Under the pieces are notes generated by a model. The model ran no database searches and was not told where the DNA came from. It worked only from the letters and a program-made list of their open reading frames with translations. The position numbers and the translations under genes were made by a program. This document shows, one piece after another, positions 27,072-54,611 of a stretch of DNA of 64,000 bases. Origin of the DNA: Escherichia coli (GTDB taxonomy: Bacteria > Pseudomonadota > Gammaproteobacteria > Enterobacterales > Enterobacteriaceae); assembly GCF_965641715.1 (NCBI RefSeq), contig NZ_OZ282453.1, one strand, 5' to 3'. Position 1 is the first letter of the stretch. Every line of letters begins with the position of its first letter.

Positions 27072-27974
27072 TTATTGATAAACAAAAGTCACGCCAATAA
27101 TCGATTGCACATTCCCTGCAGTCACCTGCCCTCCGGTACGTGCGTAATTTGCCGTTAATCCCAGACTTACCGCCGAAGTTCCTACTGCTCCTAACGATAC
27201 CGTGTTATTCGCTGGAATAATCGTACCGTTGCGCGTCAACTGTACGCCGACGCCCTGCGCTGGTGAAAACGACGCGGTATTGGTGAAAATCGAGTTGCCC
27301 GCATCTGCGGTTGTGCCGGAGAGGTAATACCCCAGGTTTTGGCTTTTCGCACAATAAACGGTAAGAGGAATTGGCACTGAACCAGGGTAGTCCGGCAGAG
27401 TAACGGTGACATCACGAGCAGAAACATCGCAGCCGCCAGTAGGCACCACCACATCATTATTGGCGTAAATATTCCACACAAACTGGAAATCATCGCTGTT
27501 ATAGTTGTTGGTCTGTCGCAAAATAAGCACGGCAATTAATGAGCCAGCTTTAATCGCCACCCCGCCCGCACTGCTCACAGGCGTCAAATAAAGCGCCACC
27601 GGCCACGGCTTATCCGTTCTCGAATTATAAACAACCCGCGGCGTTTCGCTGGTGGTCGGAAATGGATAGCTACTGCCACTATATTTTACGGTCCCGGAAA
27701 AATTAGATAACACGCCGCCATAAGCCGAGCCTCGTTGCAGTGTGACATAGTCTGTAATGGTTTCCGGATAATCGTTATGGCAAAAGATTTGCGTCGAAAG
27801 ATCTACGACCAGGTTTTGCCCCACATTCACGGCAGGCGCAAGGTTTACATAAACATTAGCGCTGCCACCGCCAATAGGGATAGCGGTACCATTGGCGGTT
27901 TTACAGGCGAATGACCAGGCATTTACCGACCAGCCCATCAGCAGTACAGCAAACAGGGTAATAACTCGTTTCAT
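27072..27974 (-). CDS. fimH: type 1 fimbrial adhesin (mannose-binding tip)
   Basis: 300-aa ORF, signal peptide then FACKTANGTAIPIGGGSANVYVNLAP. Confidence 0.95.
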   Translation of the reverse strand: MKRVITLFAVLLMGWSVNAWSFACKTANGTAIPIGGGSANVYVNLAPAVNVGQNLVVDLSTQIFCHNDYPETITDYVTLQRGSAYGGVLSNFSGTVKYSGSSYPFPTTSETPRVVYNSRTDKPWPVALYLTPVSSAGGVAIKAGSLIAVLILRQTNNYNSDDFQFVWNIYANNDVVVPTGGCDVSARDVTVTLPDYPGSVPIPLTVYCAKSQNLGYYLSGTTADAGNSIFTNTASFSPAQGVGVQLTRNGTIIPANNTVSLGAVGTSAVSLGLTANYARTGGQVTAGNVQSIIGVTFVYQ

Positions 27975-27993
27975 TACAATTATCTCTTCGGGT

Positions 27994-28497
27994 TCAGCTG
28001 TAGGTATAGGTGATGCTAATCACTGCCTGAATGGTTCCCTGAGTGGCTCCGCCATTTACCGTCAATGCTCTGACCTGTAACGGGAAGTGCGCTGATTGTG
28101 AGGAATCATCCACCTGAACTGTTTTGGTTGCGCCAGTATTCAATGTGTTGCCACTGTCATCCTGTAGCTCTAACTGGATGTTTTGCGCGGTCCCCTGGTT
28201 TTTATAATATCCGGTACTGTCGGCTGCCCCGCTGAAGCTGGCAGTGACCCTCGACGTTCCCACCGGACAATTAGTCAACTCAAGAGCAACATCATGCCAG
28301 GCCGATGCCGCCCCGGCAGACATCAGACTGAAAGAATAAAGATCGCCGAGATCAACCGTGGCATTGGTGGTGGAAACTGTGCACGGTTTGGCGACGACCT
28401 TACCGTTCACCGTGATGGTGACATCGGCTGCCTGTATCGTCGCACTTGCGAGCGCCAATATTGCCGCCAATAAATACCCACGTTTGCGCCATTTCAT
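27994..28497 (-). CDS. fimG: type 1 fimbrial minor subunit
   Basis: ORF 27994-28503; pilin-like with signal peptide. Confidence 0.9.
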   Translation of the reverse strand: MKWRKRGYLLAAILALASATIQAADVTITVNGKVVAKPCTVSTTNATVDLGDLYSFSLMSAGAASAWHDVALELTNCPVGTSRVTASFSGAADSTGYYKNQGTAQNIQLELQDDSGNTLNTGATKTVQVDDSSQSAHFPLQVRALTVNGGATQGTIQAVISITYTYS

Positions 28498-28509
28498 GAG
28501 CATCTCCAG

Positions 28510-29040
28510 TTACTGATATTCAAGAGTGAAGGTAGCCGTGGCATTGATATGCCCCGCAATGACAGGCACCTGTGTCGCCATTAGCCGGGCGTAAAAATTC
28601 AGCGTATTTGGTTTACCCGGCGTCAGGGTCGTCCACGAAAGCGCGGACGATGGAGCATTAAGGGGTATTTGATTTTGCTGCTCATTCAGAAGCTGTATTC
28701 CCAGTCCCGCAGCCGCTGACACCGTATTTTCAAGTGCAAGCAGGTTGGCATTGTGGCTATCTGCAACGCCGGTAAACCCAACCTTTACGGCAGAAACGGC
28801 GTTACCACAGGGTGACAGCAAAATACGAAATGGAACGACAGGAGTCGTTGCGCCAATGTTGTTAAATTGCTTCGCCGCGTTTTCCATCAGATCAACAGTA
28901 AAATTGGTTGATTCAGCGGCCACACTACAGCCGTTATCTCTGACATAGCCGCGGATAGTAATCGTACTATCCGCAGCCAAAGCGTGACTCACCGCCAGCC
29001 ACAAAAAAGCGCACAGAAGATAAAAAGGTTTGTTTCTCAT
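28510..29040 (-). CDS. fimF: type 1 fimbrial minor subunit
   Basis: ORF 28510-29043; start at MRNKPFYLL. Confidence 0.9.
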
Positions 29041-29049
29041 CACGCCCCC

Positions 29050-31686
29050 TTAACGACATTCAGCTGATAGCTGGGTTAATAACTGCTGCTGACTCTCTGG
29101 TGGCAGTTGATAATTGGCGACACAGTGAGCATTTTCCTCTTCTCCCCATTTCACCTGAACTTTTCCCGCTAGAGGCATTCCGCTGAGGTAAACCTGACCA
29201 TTATCCGCAACAATGCCGCTACTCTGGCTACTCTCTGATGTCACCATCGCCCCAAACGGCAGCGGCTTATTATTGTGGGTTAGCGTCATGAGCAGTTTTA
29301 TCCCAACGCGCGCTTTAAACTCTGCTCGCACGATCGCCCCACGAGTGGGAACAACGTTAGCGACCGCGTTATCTAAATCGACGTTATCAGCCAGGGTATT
29401 GGTATCCAGCGCCACTCTGTTTTCCCGATATTCGGTGGCATAAGGCAGCACGGCATAACCGCGCCAGTCGGTACGCACCCCCGTCTGGTTTTCGACTTTT
29501 GCATCTTTTGCGCCAGGCGCTTTAACAAGTACCACCGTATCGTTTAACGGCTGCCCCAGCGTTACGCCATTGGCATGAGCCAGTACCCCACCGCTGACTC
29601 CGTAATAGAGCTGCTTAATATCATCGCTATGGCTGTAACCGATATTGGCATTGCCGTAACCACCGCGATAATTCAGCGTGGCGTAGCCTGTGCTTCCGCT
29701 ATTACCATCGCCTCCCCCGGCATAGCCGGTTTGCACGCTATAGCTGAGGTTGTTGTCTTCCAGCAACGTACCGTATACGCCAGCCAGATTGGTCATCCGA
29801 CCGTTGAGATCGTGTGACATGCTGTAGCTGGCACTGGCATGTCGCCACTGAGATTTACTATCAGAACGCAGCCAGTGGCTGAAAGGAATATTGACGTTAA
29901 GCGCTAACATCTGATCCCGTCCTTTTTGCCAGGCGTTTTTCGTCAGGCTATAGCTGAGCGTCCAGTTGATATCTTCGAACGCAGTATTTAAACCAGCCTG
30001 GAATTGCTCATCGACATTACTCGTTCCCCAATAAGTTTGATGGCTACCACTCAAATACAGTGTTGATGTGCGCCCGAGTTGCTGAGTAACGGTGAGTTGT
30101 AATTTCCCGCGTTTGTTATAAGCGAGGTTGTAATAGTCGGTGAATTTCGGCTTAACCTGAATAACTCCGTCCTGTGTTTCGATGTTGTAGCCATTCATTC
30201 GACTGTATGTTGTATCAGCGAAATTAAAATATCCGCTGGTCGAATAACGGTAACCCACTAACTGAATATTCGTGCCTGACTCATTGAGCGATTTATTATA
30301 GAGAAAACGCACCGATTGTCCGTCATGCTGACTGTCATCGGGAAGTGTGGAATTAGCCTGAGTCATATCCACAGACAGAGCGCCCAGTGCCCCCATATTT
30401 TTCCCGATACCAAAATTAAAAGCACGATAACGATCTGCCAGTTGCGTTCCACCATATATTGTCCAGCCAGCCGGAAGGCCGTGGAGTAATGTACTTTGGA
30501 AAAAGCGGGGTTTTTCCTGTTGCGCATTTCCACTACGGTATTCTCCTGCCGTAATGGAATAACGAGTATGCCCTTCACGTTGCAAAAGCGGGACTGACGA
30601 ATAGGGTACGGTAAAAATCTGCGTGCTGCCGTCAGCCTCTTTAATCGTTACCTGCAAGTCACCACTATTACCTGCGGCATAGATATCGTTGATGGTAAAA
30701 GGCCCCGGCGGCACCGTACTATTATAAATGTCATACCCATTTTGTTTAATAGTGACCTGTGCAGTACCACGAGCAATACCGTGGATCACCGGGGCAAATC
30801 CTCTTTGGCTATCGGGTAACATATTGTCATCTGAGGCCAATTGTGCGCCGCGAAAGTTAATACCATCGAAAATATCGCCCTGGGTATAACCATCACCCAG
30901 CGTCAGCCGGGAACGTAAAGGAATTATGTCTCGCTCAAGCCAGGTATTGATATGCTGCCATTTATTTTTGCTACCTGATGAACTGTCGCTACTGTTATAA
31001 CTCCAGGTGGTATTGTCGCGTAAACGCCACGCACCAATATTTAACCCACTCTGTAGGTTTAAATATGCATAATGGCTGTTACCCCCAATCCGATTCTGTA
31101 CACTATTTCCGCTGAAATTATAATTGAGCAATCCGGCATTAATACCGGGATCCCATAACTCAGGAGGAATATAACCACGCGCGCGATTACTCATAAATGC
31201 CTGAGGGATCGTCAGGTTCAGTCGCTGCTGACCAACATCTAAATGCGCAGTAGCGTCCTGGACCATTGTGGTTAATGGCACACAGGCATCATCCGCCAGC
31301 AGATTCATACCGGAGACAGAAGCCGTATTCAGCCCCATACTGGCAAGTTGCGCGCGTGTCAGGCAGGGAACAATCCCTTGTTCGCTGTCGCCCGTATTAA
31401 ATGTGACATCACGCGTTGCCATATAACCATTATTCAAATAGATATCGACACGATACGTCCCTGGCGGTAATTCTTGCCCATTTTCAAAACGCGATAAATC
31501 AGCCACAGCCTGGGGATCATCCGCTAAAAAGCGCGGATTAAAATAGAGTTCGGCAGATGACAAAGGTGTCTGTGCGGCAAAAGCACAGGCGACAAAGAGC
31601 CGGACAAAAAAACCAGCCAAACGATGCTTACGAATATGCAAGCATTGTGTGTTTCGCTGGTAAAGTCTTAAATTCAGATATGACAT
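29050..31686 (-). CDS. fimD: fimbrial outer-membrane usher
   Basis: 878-aa ORF. Confidence 0.95.
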   Translation of the reverse strand: MSYLNLRLYQRNTQCLHIRKHRLAGFFVRLFVACAFAAQTPLSSAELYFNPRFLADDPQAVADLSRFENGQELPPGTYRVDIYLNNGYMATRDVTFNTGDSEQGIVPCLTRAQLASMGLNTASVSGMNLLADDACVPLTTMVQDATAHLDVGQQRLNLTIPQAFMSNRARGYIPPELWDPGINAGLLNYNFSGNSVQNRIGGNSHYAYLNLQSGLNIGAWRLRDNTTWSYNSSDSSSGSKNKWQHINTWLERDIIPLRSRLTLGDGYTQGDIFDGINFRGAQLASDDNMLPDSQRGFAPVIHGIARGTAQVTIKQNGYDIYNSTVPPGPFTINDIYAAGNSGDLQVTIKEADGSTQIFTVPYSSVPLLQREGHTRYSITAGEYRSGNAQQEKPRFFQSTLLHGLPAGWTIYGGTQLADRYRAFNFGIGKNMGALGALSVDMTQANSTLPDDSQHDGQSVRFLYNKSLNESGTNIQLVGYRYSTSGYFNFADTTYSRMNGYNIETQDGVIQVKPKFTDYYNLAYNKRGKLQLTVTQQLGRTSTLYLSGSHQTYWGTSNVDEQFQAGLNTAFEDINWTLSYSLTKNAWQKGRDQMLALNVNIPFSHWLRSDSKSQWRHASASYSMSHDLNGRMTNLAGVYGTLLEDNNLSYSVQTGYAGGGDGNSGSTGYATLNYRGGYGNANIGYSHSDDIKQLYYGVSGGVLAHANGVTLGQPLNDTVVLVKAPGAKDAKVENQTGVRTDWRGYAVLPYATEYRENRVALDTNTLADNVDLDNAVANVVPTRGAIVRAEFKARVGIKLLMTLTHNNKPLPFGAMVTSESSQSSGIVADNGQVYLSGMPLAGKVQVKWGEEENAHCVANYQLPPESQQQLLTQLSAECR

Positions 31687-31752
31687 TATTCCTCCGGTTT
31701 AAAATCACCCGGCAGTCAATTCTTTTTATTCAGGCGAAAAATTCCCCCTGCG

Positions 31753-32478
31753 TTATTCCATTACGCCCGTCATTTTGGGGGTAAGTGCGCCATAATCATT
31801 TATTGTTCGGTAAGTAATATTGCTTCCCGCATCAGAAGGCAATTTAACCGTGCTTTCGCCCATTGGAGGCACCAAGGCATTTTCAAGAACCCGGGCTCCG
31901 GCATTCAACTCTGTTACCGTCAGGTAATAGGGTGTCGGGTTAATCAGCGTCAGAGAATTCGCGCTACGACGAAATCTTAATTTTTCTGCGGCCTGATCGG
32001 GTGGCAACGCTAATTTAGCCGGACGATAGTACAGTTTAATGCGGCTGATAATTGCGAGCTGTAGCGTATTCTCAGTCAATTTTGATTTATCCATTGACGG
32101 AATCGCTTTAACGTTCATCCAGAATAAACTTTCCCGGTCCTGTGGCAATTGGTTATTTGTTGCATCAAGAATACGCAAGGTATTCTCTTTTTTTCCCTTC
32201 ATCGCAAATAGAGGAGGCGTCACGATAAAACGACCATCCTTTACACCATCGGCATTTTCCACCCATGATTGAATTAAATAGGTACTATTTTCATCATTAT
32301 TTGTCACGGCAAGTTGCACTTGTTTTTGCCCTGCCGGATAAATTACGCGAGTCGCACCTAAGGCCACTCCCGCTTCAGCACGTCCGGCAACCATCATTGC
32401 CATGAACATCAGGATACCTGCCAGCAAGCAGAATGTTATTTCCTGCGATTTCCTTACATTGACGTTTTTATTACTCAC
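31753..32478 (-). CDS. fimC: periplasmic fimbrial chaperone
   Basis: 241-aa ORF, PapD-like. Confidence 0.95.
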   Translation of the reverse strand: MSNKNVNVRKSQEITFCLLAGILMFMAMMVAGRAEAGVALGATRVIYPAGQKQVQLAVTNNDENSTYLIQSWVENADGVKDGRFIVTPPLFAMKGKKENTLRILDATNNQLPQDRESLFWMNVKAIPSMDKSKLTENTLQLAIISRIKLYYRPAKLALPPDQAAEKLRFRRSANSLTLINPTPYYLTVTELNAGARVLENALVPPMGESTVKLPSDAGSNITYRTINDYGALTPKMTGVME

Positions 32479-32514
32479 TGTCCTGTTCCTGTTATCACAT
32501 TATCTGCTGAACAA

Positions 32515-33054
32515 TTACTGATAGGTTAAAGAGAACCAGGCCTGGGCATTGGCGATGCCGCCAGTAACCCGACGCCCGGTAGCACGATATTTGGCGATGA
32601 AATGTAGCGAAGTAGAGCCTGAGTAAAGCCGTTTCCAGTTTGCTGGAGGACGATTAATCGGTACGAGGTTTCCTTCATCATCAAACAACGCTACGCCAAT
32701 ATTGGTGGCTATCCCTGGCCCCTCTCCCACGGAAAGCACATCCGGATTTTTACCATCCGCGACACCGTGAAACGCCACCCCCACACGTTCACTCACCACC
32801 GTGCTACATTCCCGTAAATGAATAACAAAAGGCACCGGTGCGCTATCTTCCCCTACCGCATGAAACCGGTTACTGCTGATTTGCCCCATATTGACCGTCA
32901 TTTGTTTATCACCGGCTTCAATCCGGCAAGTTTCCGCAATAATGACGCCCTGAAATTGCATATTTCCGCCGGGCAACGTGGTATTCCATTTATTTCCGGC
33001 CAGAGCAAACATTGGCAGCAACGACGCTAATAGAAATAATCTCTTCCTTTTCAT
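32515..33054 (-). CDS. fimI: fimbrin-like protein FimI
   Basis: ORF 32515-33186; conserved start [19 protein letters not shown] at about 33054. Confidence 0.85.
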
Positions 33055-33118
33055 CGTTATTTTTATCGCACAAGGGTGGGCATCCCTGCCCGTAATGACG
33101 TCCCTGAACCTGGGTAGG

Positions 33119-33667
33119 TTATTGATACTGAACCTTGAAGGTCGCATCCGCATTAGCTGCGCCAGGGGTTGCGACACCAATTGCATAATAACGCGCCTGG
33201 AACGGAATGGTGTTGGTTCCGTTATTCAGGGTTGTTTGTGCACTAAATGACGCACCATCCAGCGCCAACGCAGCTCCTGTTTTATCCAGGATCTGCACAC
33301 CAACGTTTGTTGCGCTACCCGCAGCAGAACTCTGCAGAGCCAGTACGTTGGTATGATTCGTGTCAATTGTTGTACCTAAGAAGGCAACAGCAGCTTTGCT
33401 TGCAACATCGGTATCGCAATCATTCAGCTGAATGTTAAAACCGACAGCAGAGCTGGTCGCTCCATCCTGGTCCAGCGAAGCGGTACGAACCTGACCTAAC
33501 TGAACGGTTTGATCAACAGAGCCTGCATCAACTGCGCAAGCGGCGTTAACAACTTCCCCTTTAAAGTGAACGGTCCCACCATTAACCGTCGTGGCAGCGG
33601 CCAGAGCCGCTGTAGAACTGAGGGACAGAGCCGACAGAACAACGATTGCCAGAGTTTTAATTTTCAT
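33119..33667 (-). CDS. fimA: type 1 fimbrial major subunit
   Basis: ORF 33119-33724; start at [23 protein letters not shown] (33667). Confidence 0.95.
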
Positions 33668-33786
33668 GCTGCTTTCCTTTAAAAAAACTATTTCTAAATC
33701 GACATGGGCAGTCGTTCTGTACACTTTGTTTTGTCAACGAGTTTGACTGCCAACACTGCACAGTTTTCCCCCAAAAGATGAAACAT

Positions 33787-34100
33787 TTGGGGCCATTTTG
33801 ACTCATAGAGGAAAGCATCGCGCACAAACTTTTTCAGTTTATTTGTTGGCTTAATATTCTATTGTTATCTTTATTTATAGATTTTTATATTGCATGAGGT
33901 GGTTTTTGGAGAGAAGAATGAGGAAGATGCGTCGAGCCACAGAAACGTTAGCTTTACATATAGCGGAGGTGATGTGAAATTAATTTACAAGAGAAATAAT
34001 TTACATATCAAACAGTTAGATGGTTTTTGTCGTTTTTTAAAATTTTTATGCTTGAGAAAAAATACGTAACTTATTTATGATATGGACAGTTTGGCCCCAA
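33787..34100. promoter_or_regulatory. fimS: fimS invertible promoter element (314 bp) bounded by 9-bp inverted repeats
   Basis: ttggggcca at 33787-33795 and its reverse complement tggccccaa at 34092-34100; sigma70-like TTGAGA-N17-TATGAT at about 34045-34074 reads toward fimE (+ strand). Confidence 0.85.
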
Positions 34101-34147
34101 TTGTCTTGTATTTATTTTTTTTTTAACTTTATTATCAATAAGTTAAA

Positions 34148-34744
34148 TCAAACCTCTTCTCTTTTTAATTTTTCGTTTATGAGATTATTTCTTTCCCATA
34201 ATCCGGCAAAACGAGCAGCATTACTGGCGGTATAACGTACAGTATGGCGAATATTTCGATGCCCGAGATAATCCTGAATTAAACGAGTATCTGCACCACG
34301 CTCCGCCAGTTCATAACCGCAAGCATGCCTTAACATATGAGGATGAGTCTGCGTTACGGTTCCAGCTTCAATACCGGCATCGCGAATAATGCGATAGGCC
34401 TGCTGGCGAGAAAGCCGACTCCCGCGGCGAGAAATAAATATAGCGTCGGTCCGGTCAGCGCCTTTCCAGTTAGCACGTTCCTGGGTCCAGCGTTCCACAG
34501 CTTCACGCTCATCAAAACGTAACGGGTGAACGGTAGAAAATCCGTTCTTCAGTCGGCGAATATTTATTCGACCTTCATTAAGGTCAAGATCCTGATAATG
34601 CAGATCAAGTAGTTCACTAATACGCATCCCATGCCGATATGCCAACAGAATAAGGCAATAATCTCTGGCTCCCGTTGCCCCGTAACAAACCGCCTGCATC
34701 ATGGCCTGAACTTCTTTACCGGTAAGATAACGACGTTTACTCAC
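34148..34744 (-). CDS. fimE: fimS site-specific tyrosine recombinase (ON-to-OFF)
   Basis: 198-aa ORF; tyrosine recombinase C-terminus (HMLRHACGYELAERGADTRLIQDYLGHRNIRHTVRYT). Confidence 0.95.
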   Translation of the reverse strand: MSKRRYLTGKEVQAMMQAVCYGATGARDYCLILLAYRHGMRISELLDLHYQDLDLNEGRINIRRLKNGFSTVHPLRFDEREAVERWTQERANWKGADRTDAIFISRRGSRLSRQQAYRIIRDAGIEAGTVTQTHPHMLRHACGYELAERGADTRLIQDYLGHRNIRHTVRYTASNAARFAGLWERNNLINEKLKREEV

Positions 34745-35221: not shown

Positions 35222-35824
35222 CTATAAAACAGCGTGACGCTGTCGTCCTCTGGCTCTATCCCAGATGCCGTAAAAACGCCCTGCATTGCTGGCGGTATAC
35301 CAGACAGTATGACGAATATTGCGATGCCCAAGATAATCCTGGATAAGTCGCGTATCTATTCCCATATTCGCCAAAGCAAAACCACACGAATGGCGTAACA
35401 TGTGCGGATGAATCTCCAGTGACAACCCGGCATTACCACCGGAAGTCGAGATAATATGGTAAAACTGTTGCCGAGAAAGCGGATTTCCCTTACGTGATAA
35501 AAATACCCACTCGCTCTCAGCATGCGGGTACGAAGTACGGATACTCAACCAGTTTTTTAAAGCCTGAACTTCTTTGTTCAATAGCGGATGCGTTGTTGAA
35601 AAGCCTTTTTTTAATCGATGGATATATATACACTTTGCCTTAAGATCAATATCCGAAATCCTCAATCGACAAATTTCACTCGCCCGGAAACCATGAATAA
35701 AACAAAGCAAAGTCAGACAATAATTACGTGCTGCATGAGGCCCGGTATTTGCTGCTTTAAGGAGTGATTCGATTTCACTATGGGTCAGGAAGTTCCTTTT
35801 TTTGTTATCAGCCTTATTCTTCAT
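35222..35824 (-). CDS. fimB: fimS site-specific tyrosine recombinase (bidirectional)
   Basis: ORF 35222-35854; start at MKNKADNKKRNFLT (35824); paralogous to FimE. Confidence 0.95.
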   Translation of the reverse strand: MKNKADNKKRNFLTHSEIESLLKAANTGPHAARNYCLTLLCFIHGFRASEICRLRISDIDLKAKCIYIHRLKKGFSTTHPLLNKEVQALKNWLSIRTSYPHAESEWVFLSRKGNPLSRQQFYHIISTSGGNAGLSLEIHPHMLRHSCGFALANMGIDTRLIQDYLGHRNIRHTVWYTASNAGRFYGIWDRARGRQRHAVL

Positions 35825-40173: not shown

Positions 40174-40824
40174 TTAATTTGATTTATTCGCATCCATCAG
40201 CGCTTTTAACTCCTCCGGCGTAAACGGTGGTTTGCGTCGGTGCAACATCGCATGGCAATTAGGGCACACAGGAAGTAAATCATTAACTGGATCCAGCTGG
40301 TAATCCTCTTTAATGGCTGAAAGCGGCACCAGGTGATGCATATGGATAAAACCCTCAGCGATATCGCCATAGATCTTCACCAGATCAACGCCGCATACGT
40401 TGCACTGGCATCCGTGATGTTCGACTGCTTTCTCGCGAGCTTTTTTATCGCGTTCATAGCGGTTTACCGTCACCTTTATCGCCGCACCTTCAACGTAGGT
40501 CCCCTGCGACGGCAACTCATCCGGGAACAGAACATCGGCTATGGGAGCCGCAGCGGCTTTATCCTGATGAATATGAAATCCCTGATCTATAAGTAGCTTG
40601 ACGCATTTAGATTTTATTCCGCCGGTGAAATCCGCAGGGGTAAATTGCGTCCCCGTCATCAATGTCGCTGCGATGCCAGCAATCGCCTTCGAGGGGTAAC
40701 GTCGGCCATGATATTCAATCTCATACAACCGCGCAGGCTGGAACTGATGAGTTTCTCCCGCATCCCATAAATGGATAGCTTCGATGATATACCGCCGCGG
40801 AAGATGGTCGGGAAGTTTATTCAT
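40174..40824 (-). CDS. HNH endonuclease with N-terminal domain of unknown function
   Basis: 216-aa ORF with RBS; C-terminal HNH signature (CQCNVCG ... HMHHLVPLS ... PVCPNCHAMLH); convergent with nanS. Confidence 0.75.
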   Translation of the reverse strand: MNKLPDHLPRRYIIEAIHLWDAGETHQFQPARLYEIEYHGRRYPSKAIAGIAATLMTGTQFTPADFTGGIKSKCVKLLIDQGFHIHQDKAAAAPIADVLFPDELPSQGTYVEGAAIKVTVNRYERDKKAREKAVEHHGCQCNVCGVDLVKIYGDIAEGFIHMHHLVPLSAIKEDYQLDPVNDLLPVCPNCHAMLHRRKPPFTPEELKALMDANKSN

Positions 40825-42301: not shown

Positions 42302-44533
42302 TTAGTTCTCAACCATCAATCGGGAAAGTTTGGCAAAAATCGAACTCTTACTACTTTCGCCACTCCTGAGCATATCCAGGGTGAAGCTATTGAGGTAAGC
42401 ACCAGTTAACGGGTGGTTAAATACATCTACGGCCTTACCTTGGGCGTCCCATATCAGCAGATTTTCTACCAGGTTAGGCCGTGCAATAGTAGGATTTGTA
42501 GGCTGAGCATCGCTTACCAGAACAAACACTCCATTCACATGCGGTTGCAGGTAAATATGGTGATGCTTCATCTTTTGAGTTTTGGTCAACGAGTCGTATT
42601 TCGAGCGGCCCGGTGATATCAGATAGGGCAGTACGTTTTGCTCCAATTTTGCTGAGCGGGTGATGGTATAGCCGTTAAATTTATCACCTTTACGCTCCGC
42701 CAGCGCTTTTTCTTGTTCCTGATAAGCATATGAATCGACGATATTAAATTGCGCTGGGCCAATCAGGCGCGGCACGCGGGAGCTGTTATAGGTGGTAAGC
42801 AGCACATCTGCTGTGTGGTCGTAGAGATAGAAGCTTTTATCGAATAATTTCTTTAGTCGTCCCAGAGCTGGATGATCAACAGATAGATACTCGAATTCAC
42901 CTTCAGCGATCCCGGTATCAACCACCCTAAGTTGGCCGCGCTCTATTTTTAGTTCAACATATCCAAGCAGGGAGAGATAGCTTTTTGTTTTGCGTACTGA
43001 ATAGGCGGTATAGTGCCCATCCGCCAATTCTGGCAGTGGTATGTTATGTTGATTGAGTAAGCTCTCTTTGAACCATAGTTCAGTTTTTGTTCGGCGTACC
43101 TTACTTTTCAATAAGGTAACTGCTGACTTGAGACGACTGTGTGGTTTCGTCAGTTCGATTTCGTATTGTGCAGGGTTGCTTACCAATTGTTCATTAATAA
43201 AATCAATCGCATCCAGCAACTTACGATCAATATTCATTCCTTGTAAAACCACAGGCACCGGTTGCTGATTTAGCCACCCTTGCAAACGATCTAGCTTAAG
43301 CTGGGTATAGGTATCCCAGTTGAGTTCAGGCTGTTTTCGGGCGTCGTCAAAGGCTGCATAGAAATCATTGTACTCAACAGATTCATTCTCTTGCTGCCGG
43401 ATGCTGTTGCTTCGTTCTTCCTCTACCGCATTGAGTACCAGAATAGATGTATTGGCAGGCAGCTCAGCAAATCCGGTTTGTCGGGAATGCTTAAGCGATG
43501 CAAGAGGCCAGAGTTGATACCCAGGGAACTGGTTGGCTAATGCATCAAAGAAATAAGCTTCTTGCGTGACGCTGAATTCGACGCCGTTATTAACCACCAA
43601 CAGCGTATTAGCCAGCTGTTGATCGAGGTCGGTAGCAAACTGATTGACCTCGTGTGTAGCCTGAAATGGGATAGGTTGATGGGGGATCTCTAGTTCACTG
43701 AGGCGCTCGCTGGCAGCATTCATGACCACGTTATAGGTATAGACCTGGCATTCGCCATAGCCGCTGCGCTCACGAAAAAAATCCAGTTTGCTATCACGGG
43801 CATCAAGTTTGCGCCGAGCTTTAAGCCGACGATTATCGATGTTAAACCACACGCTGGTATCATCCAGGGATAGGTGCATCTCATCCGCCGGTTCGACCAG
43901 GAATTTTCGTTTGTGCAAGGTAAAAGCGAGTTCATTATATTCTGAGGCATAAATGTCGAGCTCAAAGGCTTCCATCACCCCGATGCCTTTTTTTTGTGTG
44001 ACGGGCTGACTCAGACGAGCGTTAAGGTAAAGCGTTGAGTTGAAGTAAGTCGGCGATACCGAAAAGCGCTCACTGGCTTTTTCCAGCATTACCATTTTCA
44101 AATGCAGGCTAAATAATCCCTGAATCAGGCGAGATAGGTCATGATTTTCAGCGGTGAGTTGCTGACAAAGCGTTTCAATACGTTCTGCCAACGTCCTATG
44201 AGCCTGACTGTTCGGGTTAGTTGCAGGCGCCAGGAAAAAAAAGACGTGATGGTAATTTGGTAAGCAATGCAGTTCATATTTTACCTCCTGCCCGGCCTCC
44301 AGCCCAAGCTTCTGCCGCACGCAAGATTTTACCTCCTGATGAATTCGCGCATAGTAATCAGCGGATTTTTCTTTTCGCTCTTTAGTAAAGCGCTGAACCA
44401 TAAAGTCTATCGTATAGATATTAGATACAGGGGCCAATAGACGCTGGATGGTCGTCAGCTGATCTTCTTCAAGCTTGATCAAATTGGTTCGGGCAATCGG
44501 AGCATCCGTCAGTTCATTCAAATTAGGGATCAT
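42302..44533 (-). CDS. 743-aa protein of unknown function, second gene of the helicase operon
   Basis: ATG overlaps the upstream helicase stop (ATGA); RBS AAGGAAAAG; no motif I can assign. Confidence 0.8.
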   Translation of the reverse strand: MIPNLNELTDAPIARTNLIKLEEDQLTTIQRLLAPVSNIYTIDFMVQRFTKERKEKSADYYARIHQEVKSCVRQKLGLEAGQEVKYELHCLPNYHHVFFFLAPATNPNSQAHRTLAERIETLCQQLTAENHDLSRLIQGLFSLHLKMVMLEKASERFSVSPTYFNSTLYLNARLSQPVTQKKGIGVMEAFELDIYASEYNELAFTLHKRKFLVEPADEMHLSLDDTSVWFNIDNRRLKARRKLDARDSKLDFFRERSGYGECQVYTYNVVMNAASERLSELEIPHQPIPFQATHEVNQFATDLDQQLANTLLVVNNGVEFSVTQEAYFFDALANQFPGYQLWPLASLKHSRQTGFAELPANTSILVLNAVEEERSNSIRQQENESVEYNDFYAAFDDARKQPELNWDTYTQLKLDRLQGWLNQQPVPVVLQGMNIDRKLLDAIDFINEQLVSNPAQYEIELTKPHSRLKSAVTLLKSKVRRTKTELWFKESLLNQHNIPLPELADGHYTAYSVRKTKSYLSLLGYVELKIERGQLRVVDTGIAEGEFEYLSVDHPALGRLKKLFDKSFYLYDHTADVLLTTYNSSRVPRLIGPAQFNIVDSYAYQEQEKALAERKGDKFNGYTITRSAKLEQNVLPYLISPGRSKYDSLTKTQKMKHHHIYLQPHVNGVFVLVSDAQPTNPTIARPNLVENLLIWDAQGKAVDVFNHPLTGAYLNSFTLDMLRSGESSKSSIFAKLSRLMVEN

Positions 44534-47500
44534 GAGACTTTTCCTTTAGTCGGCAACTTTTCTACACCCAGCAGGGTTAGTAACATTGGGTTAATGTTCA
44601 ATGTCATGCTCAGTTTCGAATTTTCCAGAGCTCGTCCGCTCTCTCGATTTTTGGGCTGATAGTACTGATAGTCGGTTTGCAACAGGTTAAGGTAGTGGAT
44701 CGTGTGATCCACGTTATCTTGCCACATCAGATTATTGGGGTTCTGGCTGTAGGCGACGTTCAGATAGACAAATCGAATGCGTTCGTAACGGCCTGACAGC
44801 ACAGCCTGAAGCTGTTTCTGTCCCTCTGTATCCGCCTTTTGGCTGGTGATATTACGGATCTGGCGAATCTTGTTGTTGCTTTTCTCAAGCGTTTCTTCTG
44901 CCCGCGTTAAATCATCCAACTGCGTCGCCCAGCGTTTAACGTCGATGCAGAGCAGGTCGTTACCCACTTCAATAAAGCGGTCAAAAAACTCATATACTAG
45001 CGGTTCAAGGCGTTCAAACACCTGTTGATCAGAAAGTGGGGTAACGCCATAGCTTTTTAGCACTTTATCGAAGAGATATTCACCGACATTGCCTTTGAGC
45101 AACGGAACTAGCCTGGGGTTGGGTACCCATTTTTTGAATGCCGTTTCCTGGATGTTGTCACATTCACGAATCAACTCGCCGACCAGGTTGCCGGGGGTAA
45201 AATCGACATCGTTTCTATACTGCGGAAAGAGGGTGAGCTCAGGCCGGTACTCTCTTGCGCCGCCAGCGAAATCCGACAGGGCGGAATAATCTCTGTGGAC
45301 AAGTCCATCCGGGCCGCGTTTGTGGCAAAGTAAAATAGTTTGATTGCCCTGATGGCGGTCGATAAACAGGGCGTGGTGGATTGATTGCATTTGCCGATTG
45401 GCGGCATACAAGGAATTAGCCTGAAGTTTTTCCAGCCAACGCATGGGATTGGTAAAGGAGTCAGAATCGCGGAATAAATTACACAATTCGAGATATTCAA
45501 GGTTGCCGGCGCGTACCTGATTTATCCAGTCGGTTTTCAGGACTCGCTTATGAACAGCATCGATGCGGCGACCATTTTCTACGATAGCCTGTTCAAACGC
45601 ATACCGCTGTTCTGCATCTCTAAATGACTGGTTCTGACTCAGCTTTTCGCACTCCTCCATTAGGCGGTGGTTAAGCAAGGACATGCTTTCTGATACTACC
45701 TCGTTACCGCTATCTTCACTGAGAGCGGCGAACTGGAATGCAACATTACGGAACACATCGCGGGGTAAAAAGATTTCTGTTTTCAATAGAGTGTCGCGAC
45801 GCTCGACTCGCCCTACGGCCTGCACGACGACTTTGAATAAGCTCATATCATGTTCGGCCATTAACAGGCGATAGTTTTCGCCGTGGGCGAAATTAACGTT
45901 GAAATCGGCCAGCTTGTGGACGGTAATATCGTCATCAGCGTAGTGTTTAAGCACGGTAACGTAGTTAGGTAATGTATTAAGATTGCCGCTGTTGTCCTTT
46001 ACTTCGCTGTAAAACGAGGAGTTGATGAGCACTAAGCGCTCAAAATCGACATCCAGACGTGGTGCATTGATATCATTAATATCGCCGTCATGGTATTTCA
46101 CAAAGTAGTTGAGGCCAGTGCCTGCACTTTTGTAGCTGCTCATAAATACCAGTACGGTATTGCTGTTCTTGAGATAGGTTTCTTGCCTAATATCTTCGAC
46201 ATTAGCCAGTGGTGAATCGAAAAAGACCAAATGGACTGTGTGACGCCCTTTGAATGGGGTAAAGGTCAGGATCTGGTCATGTTTCTTATCGTTATCCGTT
46301 TTATCATCGCACCGGGAGTGCATACCGTACTGCTGACGCCAGGCTGATTGATGAGTGCGCCAGGCGCTGATAAAGGCCCGCTTAAATGTCCCTGAAAGGG
46401 ACAAAATCAGGCTGTTTTTACCCTCGTAGGCGGCAAGCAATAACGCTTCAAGCTCCCGCTGGTACTGACGCCGTTTATAGGTATTTTTCAGGTCGTACTC
46501 CAGCGGTTTCTTCAGCGCGTCGAAAAAGTTGTCATACGTCCTGCGATAGATCTCACAATTTTGGTAGATATCGGTCAATTTTAACTGCTTATCATCGAAC
46601 ACCCTGAAGTCGACGTTGCGGATACTGGCTCTCAACGCGCGTAGTGCTCTAAGCGTATCGATATCTGTTTTTTTACGTTCAATGACTCGATAGCCAAGGT
46701 CACGGCTATAGCGCTCCAGGAAGTGACGATTGAAGTTACCGTTTTTGGTGTGGCTAAAACCACTGGTGGCGCTAAATCCAATCACTTTATTGTGCGTGCC
46801 CGTTAATAAACGTAGCAGCATGGCTTCAGGCAACTCTTGTACCAGATCCATCTCAAACGCCAGAATAATTGTACGCTCGGCTCCACTGTTCACGTAATTG
46901 AGTTCAACTATCGGCGTCATCGTGAATACGGTTTTGGGTTGCAGATAAGTGTAGAAATGATCAATCAACAAGTTTTTATCGGTGGTGCGATCGAAGATAT
47001 GTCGCACCACTCCAGCTACATTATTGGCTGCGTCAACAAATTGGCCCAAAGGTGTATTCTGGCTGCTGGAGTTATCCTGGCCACCATTTTTTACCCAGCG
47101 CTTAAAGTGTCGGTTGGTGATATCAGAACAGGCGGCGAGGATGACGGAGACCAATTGGAACAGATCGTGCAGTGTGGGATTGGTGTCGCTGGCATCATTT
47201 TCGACTTCGTAATATAGCTCGGTGCGCGTTATGTCGCCTTCGCTGTTGCGCATACGAATGCGTTTCAGCCCCTCTTCATTAACGTACATTTTGGGGTTAA
47301 AACTGAACACATTCCGGGTAATGGAAATGATGCGTTCGGCGGCGTCGCCGTTAACTTCGAATGCTCCTAACTGGTCGCGAAACATCTCCAGGATCGAGCC
47401 CAGCGTCGTACCGGGTGATAATTCGCACTTTTTCGCCAGTAGGTCTCGAAGGATGGTGATGAATTTGACCATCTCTTGCTCAAAGGTCGTTTGCGCTTCT

Positions 47501-49239
47501 TTGGGCTTTTTCCGGCGCTCCAGGCTGAGTACCGCATTGTGAATACGTCCCGCGACAGAGATAACATGCGCCAGATTATTTTCCTGTGTGATTAGCTTTA
47601 CATGGCATGTTTCTTCAAGACGGGTGTAGGCTTCATGTAGTTCATCAATGATTACCGTAAAGCGAATATTTTTCTGGCGAAAAGGGCAGTCTGGATTACG
47701 TCTGAAGTGTTCATCACGAAGATAAGCAACCTGCCCGGAATGGCCAGCTGCCGCAACGGTGCTGATCTGTGGATCTTTGGGAGCCAGCTTGCCACCAATC
47801 AGCAAGTCGAAACCTACGGACTCAAAATGCACGCCTTCACCTCGCTGACGAGGCGCCAGTCGGTAAGTTGATGTGTCGAACTTATTTGTAGTCATTAATA
47901 GCACCGACGGGCGGTACTGGCAAACTTCGAAAGGCAATACCTGTTTGATAAGCTCGAAGTAGACTTCGTGTACGCTTAGTTCAGACTTGCTTGGTTTTCG
48001 TGCTGTCTCCGCGTGTTGCATTCGCTCTTGGCGCGCCTGGAGCCCGCGACGAATGTACTCTTTAATGGAAGCTTTTTCACTATCTGGTCCAAATAGTAAT
48101 TTACAGGCTGACTCAATCGTATTGCGGATACTATGACGACAGTTTTTTAGCTGCTCTTCAAGAATTTCTCTTTCGTAGTTGTTATCCTGAGAACCGTATG
48201 TTGTCAGCTTTTTTAACTGCTCTTCACAGCGATCAATTTGTGAGACATGGTAATTGAGCGAACGCATTGCGCTGCCAATATATTTGCTACCTTTCGCCCC
48301 TTCGTACCACTGAATATAGCGGTCGCGATTTTTCAGGCCCGTGGCCCAGTCCATAAAGTCGAGATCGGCAATATCCTTACGAGAGAGAACGCAAATGAAT
48401 TCGCCGCCAGAAGCCAGAATTTTATCTTTCTGGCTGCTATCCAGGTCGATTTGTGATTTTTGCGGCGACATGAACAGCAGGTTGGTAAAGCCACCTTCGG
48501 GAAACAGATCATCTGACTTTTGTTTTTTGGCGAAACACTCCAGATATTCGACATACCCTTGAATTACGCCATAACTTTTGCCAAACCCCGTGCCATCGGA
48601 ACTGAAGATGACCTCCGCGCCATCACGTTCATGCACGTGGTAAAGTTGAGAAACTTGGGCGCGGCAAGCGTTAATATCTTCAACCAGCGTTATGTCAGGA
48701 ATTTGCCTGGAGATGAGATCTTGCAGATTATTATTGATAGTTATCTCTCCCACACGCTCACACTCACGGTAACTATTGATGGTTATTTGGCTGCTTTCGA
48801 GCAGAATCTTTTCCACTTGCATGGGAGCAAGATGCAAGGCTGTTGCAATTTCATTGATAGTATCTGATAGAGGTTCGTGTGGATTGCTAATCGTGAAGTG
48901 GTTTAGTACTGCTGCAACGGTATCTGGATGCAATGCTTTTCTGAGAGTGGGGAAGGTGAGGCTGTAATCGTATAGCGCCAAATCATTGTTTATCAGACAG
49001 CGAAACAGCTGTTTAGTGGGATCGCCTCCAGGACGGCTGGCAAATCCCAGGATTTTTGCCTGTTCGAGTCGATACAACAATGCTGCAGCATCGCGATCAG
49101 GTGAGTCAAATGCATCGTGAAGCTGCTGGCTAAATGGCATTGTGGCATTCAGCCGGTTATGGCTGACCAACGCGGAAAAGTGCTGACGTACCAAGGTAAG
49201 CAGCTTACAATCTTCCTTTATAGTCCAGTTTTTTCTCAT
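44530..49239 (-). CDS. large divergent SF2 (DExH) helicase/translocase-like protein, possible C-terminal Mrr-like nuclease fold
   Basis: ORF 44530-49275, probable start at second Met (49239) behind AGGGGA; motif I SDGTGFGKS (nt about 48574-48600), motif II VIIDELHE (about 47635-47655), Snf2-like motif V SSYKSAGTGLNY, motif VI QAVGRVERR (about 45796-45822); C-terminal GEYLFDKVL...DLLCIDVKRW. Confidence 0.8.
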   Translation of the reverse strand: MRKNWTIKEDCKLLTLVRQHFSALVSHNRLNATMPFSQQLHDAFDSPDRDAAALLYRLEQAKILGFASRPGGDPTKQLFRCLINNDLALYDYSLTFPTLRKALHPDTVAAVLNHFTISNPHEPLSDTINEIATALHLAPMQVEKILLESSQITINSYRECERVGEITINNNLQDLISRQIPDITLVEDINACRAQVSQLYHVHERDGAEVIFSSDGTGFGKSYGVIQGYVEYLECFAKKQKSDDLFPEGGFTNLLFMSPQKSQIDLDSSQKDKILASGGEFICVLSRKDIADLDFMDWATGLKNRDRYIQWYEGAKGSKYIGSAMRSLNYHVSQIDRCEEQLKKLTTYGSQDNNYEREILEEQLKNCRHSIRNTIESACKLLFGPDSEKASIKEYIRRGLQARQERMQHAETARKPSKSELSVHEVYFELIKQVLPFEVCQYRPSVLLMTTNKFDTSTYRLAPRQRGEGVHFESVGFDLLIGGKLAPKDPQISTVAAAGHSGQVAYLRDEHFRRNPDCPFRQKNIRFTVIIDELHEAYTRLEETCHVKLITQENNLAHVISVAGRIHNAVLSLERRKKPKEAQTTFEQEMVKFITILRDLLAKKCELSPGTTLGSILEMFRDQLGAFEVNGDAAERIISITRNVFSFNPKMYVNEEGLKRIRMRNSEGDITRTELYYEVENDASDTNPTLHDLFQLVSVILAACSDITNRHFKRWVKNGGQDNSSSQNTPLGQFVDAANNVAGVVRHIFDRTTDKNLLIDHFYTYLQPKTVFTMTPIVELNYVNSGAERTIILAFEMDLVQELPEAMLLRLLTGTHNKVIGFSATSGFSHTKNGNFNRHFLERYSRDLGYRVIERKKTDIDTLRALRALRASIRNVDFRVFDDKQLKLTDIYQNCEIYRRTYDNFFDALKKPLEYDLKNTYKRRQYQRELEALLLAAYEGKNSLILSLSGTFKRAFISAWRTHQSAWRQQYGMHSRCDDKTDNDKKHDQILTFTPFKGRHTVHLVFFDSPLANVEDIRQETYLKNSNTVLVFMSSYKSAGTGLNYFVKYHDGDINDINAPRLDVDFERLVLINSSFYSEVKDNSGNLNTLPNYVTVLKHYADDDITVHKLADFNVNFAHGENYRLLMAEHDMSLFKVVVQAVGRVERRDTLLKTEIFLPRDVFRNVAFQFAALSEDSGNEVVSESMSLLNHRLMEECEKLSQNQSFRDAEQRYAFEQAIVENGRRIDAVHKRVLKTDWINQVRAGNLEYLELCNLFRDSDSFTNPMRWLEKLQANSLYAANRQMQSIHHALFIDRHQGNQTILLCHKRGPDGLVHRDYSALSDFAGGAREYRPELTLFPQYRNDVDFTPGNLVGELIRECDNIQETAFKKWVPNPRLVPLLKGNVGEYLFDKVLKSYGVTPLSDQQVFERLEPLVYEFFDRFIEVGNDLLCIDVKRWATQLDDLTRAEETLEKSNNKIRQIRNITSQKADTEGQKQLQAVLSGRYERIRFVYLNVAYSQNPNNLMWQDNVDHTIHYLNLLQTDYQYYQPKNRESGRALENSKLSMTLNINPMLLTLLGVEKLPTKGKVS

Positions 49240-50364
49240 TCTTCTTCCCCTTAATATAAATGCACCTGCAACCACTCAGCCAAACGCTCAACGTCAAAAC
49301 CCGTAATCCATACTCCCACGCCAAAAACGTCTTCGATAAATATTCATCATATTTTCGAGGCACTTTTCAGAGATGCTCTTGGCAAGACGGGACTCAGGGG
49401 GTAAACCTTCCTGTAGTAAATTGCTTAGCGTCTGCTTAACTTTCCCGAGCGTATTTTTTCAACTACGGCAGCAAATGAGACGGTCTTAAAACCGTGCAGG
49501 ATAGGCCATATCTACAACGTGTTTACTACTTGAGCACACATTGTGATATGGCAGTCACCTTTCCGACAAATGGTGAACCGTCCCTGACGAACAACAACAT
49601 TAACGCATATCTCTTCATCGCCTGATCAAAGTAGCTGCCAACTATTATTCGCCTCAACAATGAGTTTTTTTACTAACGATTTCTACTACCTTCCCAAAGC
49701 GACCACAACAATCAAAAATATTGTTTACACATCAGTCTCATATCACCGGAGTAAGTTGACTATTGATAAACCATTTCAAGATATTAATAGCTGATCATAC
49801 TTCCCCAAAGTGCTTATTTATAGCGAAGGCAAATAGCATAAACTGAAGGGCGAATTGTTAAATCATACCGTGAATGAGCTGAAGAACAAGCATAAAAATT
49901 ATATCATTTACATGACTTATGTGTTTTAGTTAAATGATAAATAGGCAGTATAAAATCCAATTCAACAGCCGAGTTCAAGCGATTAATTTTTTGATGAGCT
50001 TATCAAGCACGAGCAGCGATACCAGCAAATCCACTTGGTTGCTTGAAGAATATGACTCCTTCAACACATAGCAGATTATCTCCGCCGTTGGTAGAGAACC
50101 GTTCACCGTTGTTAGTCAACAGTTATAAATTTATATTAATGATTAGAAGAATCTATCTCGGGGTAGATCATCAACATTACTTATTCTAAACCACGTTACA
50201 CATGATCTCCGGGGCAGCGAAGTCATCAAAAAAGAGTATTATAAAACTCCGCCCTTAAGGAGAAAGGTTTCCTGGCGGTTGTAATGCCGTTGACGATACA
50301 GCGCACAACACGGATATAAACAACCATTTGATTGATTAATATCTGAAGGGCTGTTTATATTTAA

Positions 50365-50553
50365 TCAAGCTAACGATTCATTAATCTTTACATAGAGATG
50401 AGGTAATGTGGCCTCATTGCGATTCACATCCAGATAATCCGCCCCCCACTGCAGCATCTGCCGCTCTACCGCATCTCTCGGCCATAGCCCCGACTCAATC
50501 AACGACCTACACGCCATTGCCCTGAAACCATGCCCACAAAAAGCAGCTCTCAA
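50365..50553 (-). pseudogene. P4-type tyrosine integrase C-terminal remnant
   Basis: HGFRAMACRSLIESGLWPRDAVERQM ... WGADYLDVNR resembles the C-terminus of P4-like integrases with an internal deletion; no N-terminal part present. Confidence 0.65.
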
Positions 50554-50937
50554 TTTCCATTCATGCTTTATACCTTTTCTAATAGGCTTTTGCTTCAGGC
50601 TTAGCCGAACGAACCTTCACATCACTCAAAGCCATGATGAATACCCTTTCAAGGGTTTTGTGTGGGTACAAACATTATCCAATCGGGATATACCCGCAGC
50701 TGTAGCTGTACCCGCATCAGTAAGTTGATGTAGATTCGAAAAATAGCGGAAACCCTGTGTGACACTGATTTCAGGCACAAAAAAAGACGTCTGTTGACGT
50801 CTATTGATGGTGCGAAGGCCGCACCGCGATTCCAGACTCAACAATATGAAATCAATGGATTTTTAAAAATGCGAAGTTACTTTGTATACTCACATGTATA
50901 CTCAGTACCATTTCTTAAGAAATCAATTCATTCAATA

Positions 50938-51744
50938 CTACTCATCATCGTCTTCCACTGGTTCCAGCACATCAAGCGCAACTCGCACCATAGCGATAGA
51001 ACCAATACGAATGAAAGCATCTTCTCCATCTTCGTCGGTTATCATAAAACGATCCGTGGTTTCAGGCTCGCAATCCAGCGCGTCAAAAAAAGCATTCAAC
51101 TGGCCGATATCATCCGTCTCTTCGTTTTGCGGCGCATCTGGCTCAACACTCAGTGGAATCACTGGTCCGCCGTTTACCAGCGTGATATGGACATTAAAAT
51201 AATCGTCTTCGTAGGCATCATCCTCTTCGTCAACGATTGGCCGCAGACCATCAGAAAGGAACTGATGAAATACCACTTCACGCATATTTAACGCATAACG
51301 ATACTCGGAAGAATCAAAAACGAAGAAGCGTTCTATGTTTGGGGCGTTTTTTTCCTGAAAATAATAATAAAACCTCCGCTTATCCGCTGCTGAAATGGGC
51401 AACAGCAAATAGTCCCTCTGCCCCTGTAGCCAAAGTTTTACGGTCCAGAGACCGCTATCCATTTCAATGCCGCTTGTGGCTATAGCCTCAAGATCTTCAT
51501 CAGTTTTACGACGCTTTTTGCGGAAGTCGTTTATCAACCGATCGCTTTCCGGGAACACTACGTTTAGAGGCTTATCCAGAGCATTACATATCGCCTGTGC
51601 GAGACCCAGCTTTGCAGCAACCTTCCCGGTTTCGATACGCTGAATTTGTTGCTGGCTGGTGCCGACCATAAACGCCAGCTCGCGCTGGGTGATAGATAGC
51701 TGGGTACGGAGCTGTTTGATGTTGTTCTGTAACATGGCATCCAT
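50938..51744 (-). CDS. XRE-family HTH transcriptional regulator with acidic C-terminal domain
   Basis: 268-aa ORF; N-terminal HTH (LSITQRELAFMVGTSQQQIQRIETGK). Confidence 0.75.
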   Translation of the reverse strand: MDAMLQNNIKQLRTQLSITQRELAFMVGTSQQQIQRIETGKVAAKLGLAQAICNALDKPLNVVFPESDRLINDFRKKRRKTDEDLEAIATSGIEMDSGLWTVKLWLQGQRDYLLLPISAADKRRFYYYFQEKNAPNIERFFVFDSSEYRYALNMREVVFHQFLSDGLRPIVDEEDDAYEDDYFNVHITLVNGGPVIPLSVEPDAPQNEETDDIGQLNAFFDALDCEPETTDRFMITDEDGEDAFIRIGSIAMVRVALDVLEPVEDDDE

Positions 51745-51849
51745 CCTTCAGAAGGAATAGAAAGTGCCATTAAAACACAAAATTGAGTATAAACACATAA
51801 TCGTGTTTACACTCACTAATCAACACCCTTGAACGAAAAGAAAATCTCT

Positions 51850-52125
51850 TCATCGTTCTTCTCTGGTATGCCAGAGATCAACTATATAAATGTCATTGTC
51901 ACGAAGTTCGTAGTGAACCTCATAGTCATCAAATAACACTTTTCGGACTTCCCGAGGTTCATACCGAGTCTGCTGTACACCAATTGCCGGATGTGCTGTA
52001 AGACCAGCACAACCAGTAATCAGGCGATCCAAAACGTCATCGGCGTGCTGGCGGCTATACTGAAGGGCGAAACGATAGATACGCTCAAGGTCATCCTGAG
52101 CTTTAAGCGTCCAGTAAATTTCCAT
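51850..52125 (-). CDS. ParE/RelE-superfamily type II toxin
   Basis: 91-aa ORF immediately downstream of the RHH ORF (4-bp gap); ParE-like translation. Confidence 0.7.
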   Translation of the reverse strand: MEIYWTLKAQDDLERIYRFALQYSRQHADDVLDRLITGCAGLTAHPAIGVQQTRYEPREVRKVLFDDYEVHYELRDNDIYIVDLWHTREER

Positions 52126-52128
52126 TTA

Positions 52129-52401
52129 TCAGGATTTCTTTAAGCGATTAGCAAAATCCACCATGTCCGAGTGGCTCATCACACGACCGGCATCCACATC
52201 ATCAAGACCGGCCTGGATGCTCTGGTGACGCCGTTCTCTTTCGGCCAGCATACTGGTCAACGCTTCCTTAATAATCCAGCTCTTAGAACGGTCCAACTCA
52301 ATTGCCAGATTCTCAACAGCAGCGGCCAATTCAATAGGTATCTGTGCGCTGATGGTTTGTTTAGTAAGCGAACCCATAGGGATTACCTCGTTTAATAACA
52401 T
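52129..52401 (-). CDS. ribbon-helix-helix (ParD/CopG-like) antitoxin
   Basis: 90-aa ORF, upstream partner of the ParE-like toxin. Confidence 0.65.
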   Translation of the reverse strand: MLLNEVIPMGSLTKQTISAQIPIELAAAVENLAIELDRSKSWIIKEALTSMLAERERRHQSIQAGLDDVDAGRVMSHSDMVDFANRLKKS

Positions 52402-52453
52402 TTAATAACTCCTATTAATATTAGCATAGAGGTGCCTATAAAAACATCACATC

Positions 52454-53311: not shown

Positions 53312-53401
53312 ATGCGCCAGCCATGAACAGCAGGCGCATTATGCAGGGAGTTATGAGGGAAGTAATTTTGGCGATGTAAATCGGGAAGGAGACTCGCAGA
53401 T

Positions 53402-53743: not shown

Positions 53744-53773
53744 AACGATGTTCCGTATTAAGGAGGTTAAAAC

Positions 53774-54582: not shown

Positions 54583-54611
54583 CGTGTTTCCTTTACCATT
54601 AATAGCGTTGT

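Follow-up and report, generated by a model that had tools for sequence, protein, structure and literature searches.

The 64,000-nucleotide stretch of Escherichia coli DNA analysed here, referred to as the window (contig NZ_OZ282453.1, RefSeq assembly GCF_965641715.1), carries the canonical E. coli fimS switch, intact and in phase OFF, an identification that we regard as very nearly certain. The element is fimS itself and not an analogue from another locus: TTGGGGCCA repeats bound a segment of 314 bp, the segment lies between fimE and fimA, the genes for both FimB and FimE are linked to it, and it is homologous to the reference element. It is the textbook fim switch in its commonest recorded state and, as such, already known.

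Boundaries and identity of the element

33787..34100, no strand: fimS invertible element, 314 bp, OFF orientation, assigned from the repeats, the alignment to K-12, and the in-silico BstUI, HinfI and OFF-probe assays
33787..33795, plus strand: IRR, the fimA-proximal 9-bp inverted repeat TTGGGGCCA, 119 nt upstream of the fimA ATG
34092..34100, minus strand: IRL, the fimE-proximal 9-bp inverted repeat, TGGCCCCAA in plus-strand reading, 47 nt past the fimE stop codon (34148)

Within the 64-kb window there are exactly two copies of the 9-mer TTGGGGCCA, at 33787-33795 (plus strand) and 34092-34100 (minus strand), and they delimit an outer span of 314 bp and an inner span of 296 bp. An earlier note on this DNA had placed 9-bp inverted repeats 314 bp apart in outer coordinates, and the same coordinates were obtained here. 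The repeat finder places the 9-bp arms at the core of an inverted repeat that is longer but imperfect. By itself the count of TTGGGGCCA is weak evidence, as 0.63 copies are expected by chance and two or more copies are found in 11 of 100 shuffles; chance is ruled out, however, by the position of the repeats between fimE and fimA and by the gapless 314-bp alignment to K-12 fimS.

Alignment of the 314 bp with fimS of K-12 MG1655 (NC_000913.3) contains 0 gaps and 5 substitutions inside the element, and the mean column identity over the 506-column alignment to the K-12 fimS region is 99%. The lack of any indel inside the element agrees with the previous description of this fimS as full length. The spacer between IRR and fimA contains 2 further substitutions relative to K-12.

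Orientation by published assays run in silico

Three published laboratory tests of orientation were run in silico on the window, with an artificially flipped window as control. The relevant restriction sites are the following.

33819..33822, no strand: single BstUI site (CGCG) of the published orientation assay, 188 bp from the OL4 primer end, as in OFF
33800..33804, no strand: HinfI site (GACTC) of the published phase assay, 198 bp from the fimA-side primer end, as in OFF
34063..34068, no strand: SnaBI site (TACGTA), in the promoter spacer, near the fimE side in the recorded orientation

With primers OL4 and OL20 the window yields a 727-bp amplicon that BstUI divides into 188 and 539 bp, the flipped window gives 434 and 293 bp, and the MG1655 reference gives 188 and 540 bp; the published fragments are 187 and 539 bp for OFF and 433 and 293 bp for ON (PMC9993118). 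The 559-bp amplicon obtained from the window with Phase_L and Phase_R is divided by HinfI into 198 and 361 bp, compared with 481 and 78 bp for the flipped window and 198 and 362 bp for the MG1655 reference. Published diagnostic bands for this assay are 359 bp for OFF and 489 bp for ON (PMC4349694), and the discrepancies of a few bp lie in these published sizes. The primers BSFORBIO and BSREVBIO, which define an OFF-specific probe published as 135 bp (PMC9993118), are convergent in the window at 33768-33788 (plus strand) and 33883-33902 (minus strand) and enclose exactly 135 bp. The core of the Fis site, at 33842-33849, lies 46 nt from IRR; the site has been placed "about 50 bp from IRR in phase OFF", and the end of the element bearing the Fis/LRP-2 site is described as the "fimA promoter-distal end" (PMC9993118).

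The BstUI, HinfI and OFF-probe results agree in placing the promoter-distal end of the element next to fimA and its promoter end next to fimE, and fimS is therefore OFF. The earlier note had claimed this orientation and had proposed HinfI orientation PCR and alignment to reference fimS as ways of checking it. All three assays uphold the claim, the in-silico HinfI digest gives the OFF pattern, and the window is colinear with K-12 NC_000913, which is itself OFF by the BstUI and HinfI assays. Beside the fimA-proximal repeat, the minus strand showed no authentic fimA promoter. A literature search turned up no paper saying outright that the MG1655 reference is OFF, and NC_000913 is for that reason classed by the in-silico assays; the UTI89 reference is reported as OFF (bioRxiv 10.1101/494401).

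Promoter-like sites

A sigma70 consensus scan covering 33600-34300, the region that contains fimS, found 3 promoter-like sites, compared with 1.9 expected from shuffles. The strongest is the following.

34052..34081, plus strand: fimA promoter candidate TTGAGA-N18-TATGAT, the best sigma70-like match in 33600-34300

This site matches the consensus at 10 of 12 positions and is identical in K-12. Its TATGAT -10 hexamer stops 10 nt short of the fimE-proximal repeat, and the site is directed toward fimE and away from fimA. In these respects it is the site previously described as the best in the element, on the plus strand, beside the fimE-proximal repeat and pointing away from fimA; the coordinates then given (about 34045-34074) were off by ∼7 nt, and the spacer is 18 nt rather than 17. 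Olsen & Klemm (1994) reportedly mapped the fimA promoter to the TTGAGA and TATGAT hexamers. A literature search for a mapped fimA promoter or transcription start naming these hexamers found nothing relevant, and a paper on EPEC shows the fimA start site in a figure only (PMC9096935). The OFF call was for this reason not rested on the hexamers. Their identity as the fimA promoter is that of a candidate, suggested by the reported mapping, by the description of the Fis end as promoter-distal, and by the phenotype-calibrated PCR assays.

A weak minus-strand match within fimS, TTGATA-N18-TAAATT (9/12), lies at 34011-33982 and overlaps the consensus match for IHF-2 described below. A minus-strand promoter driving fimA in the recorded arrangement was rejected, the published orientation assays all giving OFF.

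Downstream of the switch, in the spacer between IRR and fimA, one substitution relative to K-12 converts TTTACA to a perfect TTGACA on the fimA-sense strand (33733-33738, minus strand). Reading of the sequence revealed no -10-like hexamer 16-18 nt from this TTGACA and the promoter scan reports no site there; a promoter created by the substitution was rejected for want of a -10 partner.

Regulatory sites in and beside the element

33842..33849, minus strand: Fis/LRP-2 binding site core, CCAACAAA in minus-strand reading, its position taken from the mutagenesis primer FBSFOR2 (PMC9993118)
34006..34018, plus strand: candidate IHF-2 site inside fimS, TATCAAACAGTTA, putatively assigned from its fit to the consensus WATCAANNNNTTR
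34133..34145, plus strand: candidate IHF-1 site just outside IRL, TATCAATAAGTTA, putatively assigned from its fit to the same consensus

IHF-2 has been placed within fimS and IHF-1 adjacent to IRL (PMC9993118). Both IHF consensus matches are unchanged relative to K-12, and the 36-nt context of the Fis/LRP-2 site (33829-33864) is identical. The 5 internal substitutions spare the repeats, the promoter hexamers, the 13-nt IHF-2 match and the 36-nt Fis/LRP-2 context.

Between IRL and the IHF-1 match, an A/T run at 34113-34123 is 1 nt shorter than in K-12, where a C interrupts the run. This 1-bp change in the spacing of IHF-1 and IRL probably has a negligible effect on switching. It is quite improbable, in our estimation, that the fimS allele as a whole, with its 5 substitutions and the IHF-1/IRL spacer shortened by 1 nt, shifts switching rates or the ON/OFF bias relative to K-12; if it did, the allele effect would amount to a strain-specific set-point of fimbriation.

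The fim genes and the recombinases

34148..34744, minus strand: fimE, tyrosine recombinase biasing the switch from ON to OFF, 198 aa, 100% identical to K-12 FimE
35222..35824, minus strand: fimB, bidirectional tyrosine recombinase, 200 aa, 100% identical to K-12 FimB
33119..33667, minus strand (ATG 33667): fimA, major fimbrial subunit and first gene of the operon, 182-aa ORF
27072..33055, minus strand: fimI, fimC, fimD, fimF, fimG and fimH, all full-length ORFs

The fimA ORF has the length of K-12 fimA (549 bp) and is labelled fimA in matching genomes; the allele is a natural variant that differs from that of K-12. The remaining ORFs encode FimC (241 aa), FimD (878 aa), FimF (177 aa), FimG (169 aa) and FimH (300 aa), with FimI contained in an ORF of 223 aa, and the gene order agrees with the annotations of K-12 and of strain A30. 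The locus is flanked as usual, by uxuRBA and gntP on one side and by nanC and nanM on the other. The K-12 annotation places FimR2 between fimA and fimI; an Rfam scan of the whole window at gathering thresholds found no family, and a tRNA scan of the whole window found no tRNA.

Orientation of fimS in complete E. coli genomes

The 701-bp region was searched with megablast against 5426 complete E. coli genomes, as recorded and then with the element flipped, and an orientation was called when at least 80% of the 701-bp query was covered in one colinear piece. A genome of the opposite orientation covers only ∼55% of the query colinearly, so the OFF and ON counts do not overlap. The fimS region was matched in 4721 genomes, with the recorded (OFF) orientation in 4458 (∼94%) and the opposite (ON) orientation in 249 (∼5%). 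A further 14 of the 4721 match the region but fit neither orientation at the 80% coverage threshold, and 705 of the 5426 genomes have no megablast match to it; both groups presumably represent deletions, insertions or rearrangements of fim.

Essentially the same fimS allele as that of the window (99.9% identity) is found in the ON orientation in strain A16. Some assemblies of K-12 MG1655 and DH1 derivatives are likewise ON, whereas the NC_000913 reference is OFF. The occurrence of both orientations across assemblies of the same strains indicates that the orientation of fimS is a state of the culture and not a trait of the strain, and an OFF call in an assembly should never be taken as a strain property.

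Proposed working of the switch

FimB and FimE bind to half-sites on either side of the 9-bp repeats, and strand exchange takes place inside the repeats; FimB inverts fimS in both directions, and FimE mainly from ON to OFF. FimE is dominant in wild-type cells, so that most bacteria are non-piliated (PMC9096935; PMC11316696), and the recombination complex and its bias are shaped by IHF, Lrp, Fis and H-NS (PMC9993118). Inversion also connects fimE to, or disconnects it from, a Rho-dependent terminator inside fimS (PMC9993118).

In the working proposed for the window, the 314-bp fimS segment would be flipped by the neighbouring FimB and FimE and would carry the only promoter of fimAICDFGH at one end. 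In the recorded arrangement this promoter would fire toward the 3' end of fimE, leaving the fim operon without a promoter, and cells with this orientation would be expected to make no type 1 fimbriae. Inversion would bring the -10 hexamer to a position just inside IRR, with a predicted start ∼130 nt upstream of the fimA ATG. Because the repeats, the 314-bp length, the candidate IHF sites, the Fis/LRP-2 site, FimB, FimE and the operon are all intact, the switch should be able to invert, and as judged from sequence fimS in this strain is likely to do so in vivo. Type 1 fimbriae are important in colonisation and in urinary tract infection. With its switch intact and full length, its FimB and FimE wild-type and its operon complete, this strain should be capable of producing them, in contrast to strains locked OFF in the manner of O157:H7.

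The recorded orientation would most likely reflect the majority state of the sequenced culture, since the ON-to-OFF inversion by FimE is much faster than the OFF-to-ON inversion by FimB. Given the wild-type FimE, it is reasonable to suppose that the sequenced DNA came mostly from non-fimbriate (OFF) cells, an uninformative supposition insofar as 4458 of the 4721 matched genomes have the same orientation. An assembler gives one orientation only.

Alternative readings of the recorded orientation

Three other readings of the recorded orientation have to be weighed against an intact, phase-varying switch that happens to be OFF. If fimS were actually ON, the real fimA promoter would be another minus-strand site reading toward fimA, for which the weak TTGATA-N18-TAAATT match and the substitution-made TTGACA between IRR and fimA offer candidates. 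OFF is nevertheless the result of both published, phenotype-calibrated assays and of the OFF-specific probe, the weak site overlaps the IHF-2 match, the excess of promoter-like sites over expectation is not significant, and no -10-like hexamer stands 16-18 nt from the new TTGACA. This reading is effectively refuted, and the probability left to it is vanishingly small. The orientation might instead be the choice of the assembler from a roughly balanced mixture of ON and OFF cells, in which case it would say little about the majority. Both orientations of fimS have been found in cultures by read-level methods (bioRxiv 10.1101/494401), and the orientation varies between assemblies of the same K-12 strains as noted above; however, consensus assembly normally goes with the orientation that most reads support, and wild-type FimE imposes a strong OFF bias in cultures (PMC9096935), consistent with the 94% of assemblies that are OFF. 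We consider a balanced mixture unlikely.

It is also conceivable that fimS is locked OFF, genetically or by regulation, so that the orientation is a fixed trait and not a snapshot of phase variation. Such states are known: 16 bp are deleted from the switch of O157:H7 (PMC8605689), and EPEC E2348/69 is kept OFF via Fis and FimE despite intact fim genes (PMC9096935). The present fimS differs from that of K-12 at 5 positions, and its spacer between IHF-1 and IRL is 1 nt shorter. Against a lock, the element is free of indels between two perfect inverted repeats, and its 5 substitutions all lie outside the repeats, the promoter hexamers, the IHF-2 match and the 36-nt Fis/LRP-2 context. In addition, FimB and FimE do not differ from the K-12 proteins, and the nearly identical allele of strain A16 is found ON. 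Nothing in the cis elements, as read from the sequence, suggests a lock. A regulatory lock like that of EPEC E2348/69 (PMC9096935) may operate, and IHF, Lrp, the leuX tRNA, H-NS and Fis, on which the switch depends, are encoded outside the window. Taken over both its genetic and its regulatory forms, a locked switch appears highly improbable, and an intact fimS recorded in its OFF phase is the preferred reading.

Neighbourhood and flanking island

Over the 24 kb from 22000 to 46000, the closest of the 5426 complete E. coli genomes is that of strain A30, from baboon faeces, with 98.9% identity, and at least 80% of this stretch is covered in 439 of the 5426. With a best match of only 98.9% over 24 kb, the source lineage is absent from the complete RefSeq genomes.

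A variable island is situated to the right of nanM; it includes an HNH ORF resembling type IV restriction enzymes and, side by side, two large ORFs. The HNH ORF (216 aa, 40174-40824, minus strand) lies between the nan genes and the two large orphan ORFs. It contains an HNH endonuclease domain (PF01844, E=2e-4), and its PADLOC matches, to methyl-directed restriction enzymes of type IV, are weak (E about 1e-5); in strain A30, fragments of a phosphorothioate-dependent restriction enzyme and an integrase are among its neighbours. The two large ORFs, both on the minus strand, encode 1581 aa (44530-49275) and 743 aa (42302-44533), and the stop of one overlaps the start of the other. Neither has a Pfam-A or PADLOC match at E<=1e-3, and both are annotated as "hypothetical protein" in strain A30; they could be an uncharacterised two-gene module. 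By colinearity with the A30 annotation, the region 50000-57900 is predicted to contain genes of a CP4-type island, namely radC, genes for DUF932 and DUF4942 proteins, and RelE/ParE-CopG and CbtA-YeeU toxin-antitoxin pairs, together with an integrase fragment.

Comparison with known systems

The closest known system is the fim switch of E. coli K-12, reportedly described by Abraham et al. in 1985 and by Klemm in 1986. With fimS of K-12 MG1655 (NC_000913.3) the window shares the locus, the 9-bp repeats, the 314-bp length and the OFF orientation, as well as the promoter hexamers, the Fis/LRP-2 context, the IHF matches, FimB and FimE; it differs by 5 substitutions in the element, 2 in the spacer between IRR and fimA, and the A/T run that is shorter by 1 nt. 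The same flip principle operates in hyxS of UPEC, in fimS of Klebsiella and in the mrp switch of Proteus, which lie at other loci and have different repeats. It is also found in ipuS of UPEC, in which a tyrosine recombinase inverts a short promoter-bearing segment that has inverted repeats at its ends (bioRxiv 10.1101/494401), but ipuS occupies another locus and has 7-bp repeats in contrast to the 9-bp repeats of fimS. The fimS of O157:H7 lies at the same locus and is also OFF in the genome sequence, and its 16-bp deletion is said to prevent inversion from OFF to ON (PMC8605689). The fimS of the window has its full 314 bp without this deletion, and is therefore not the locked variant of O157:H7.
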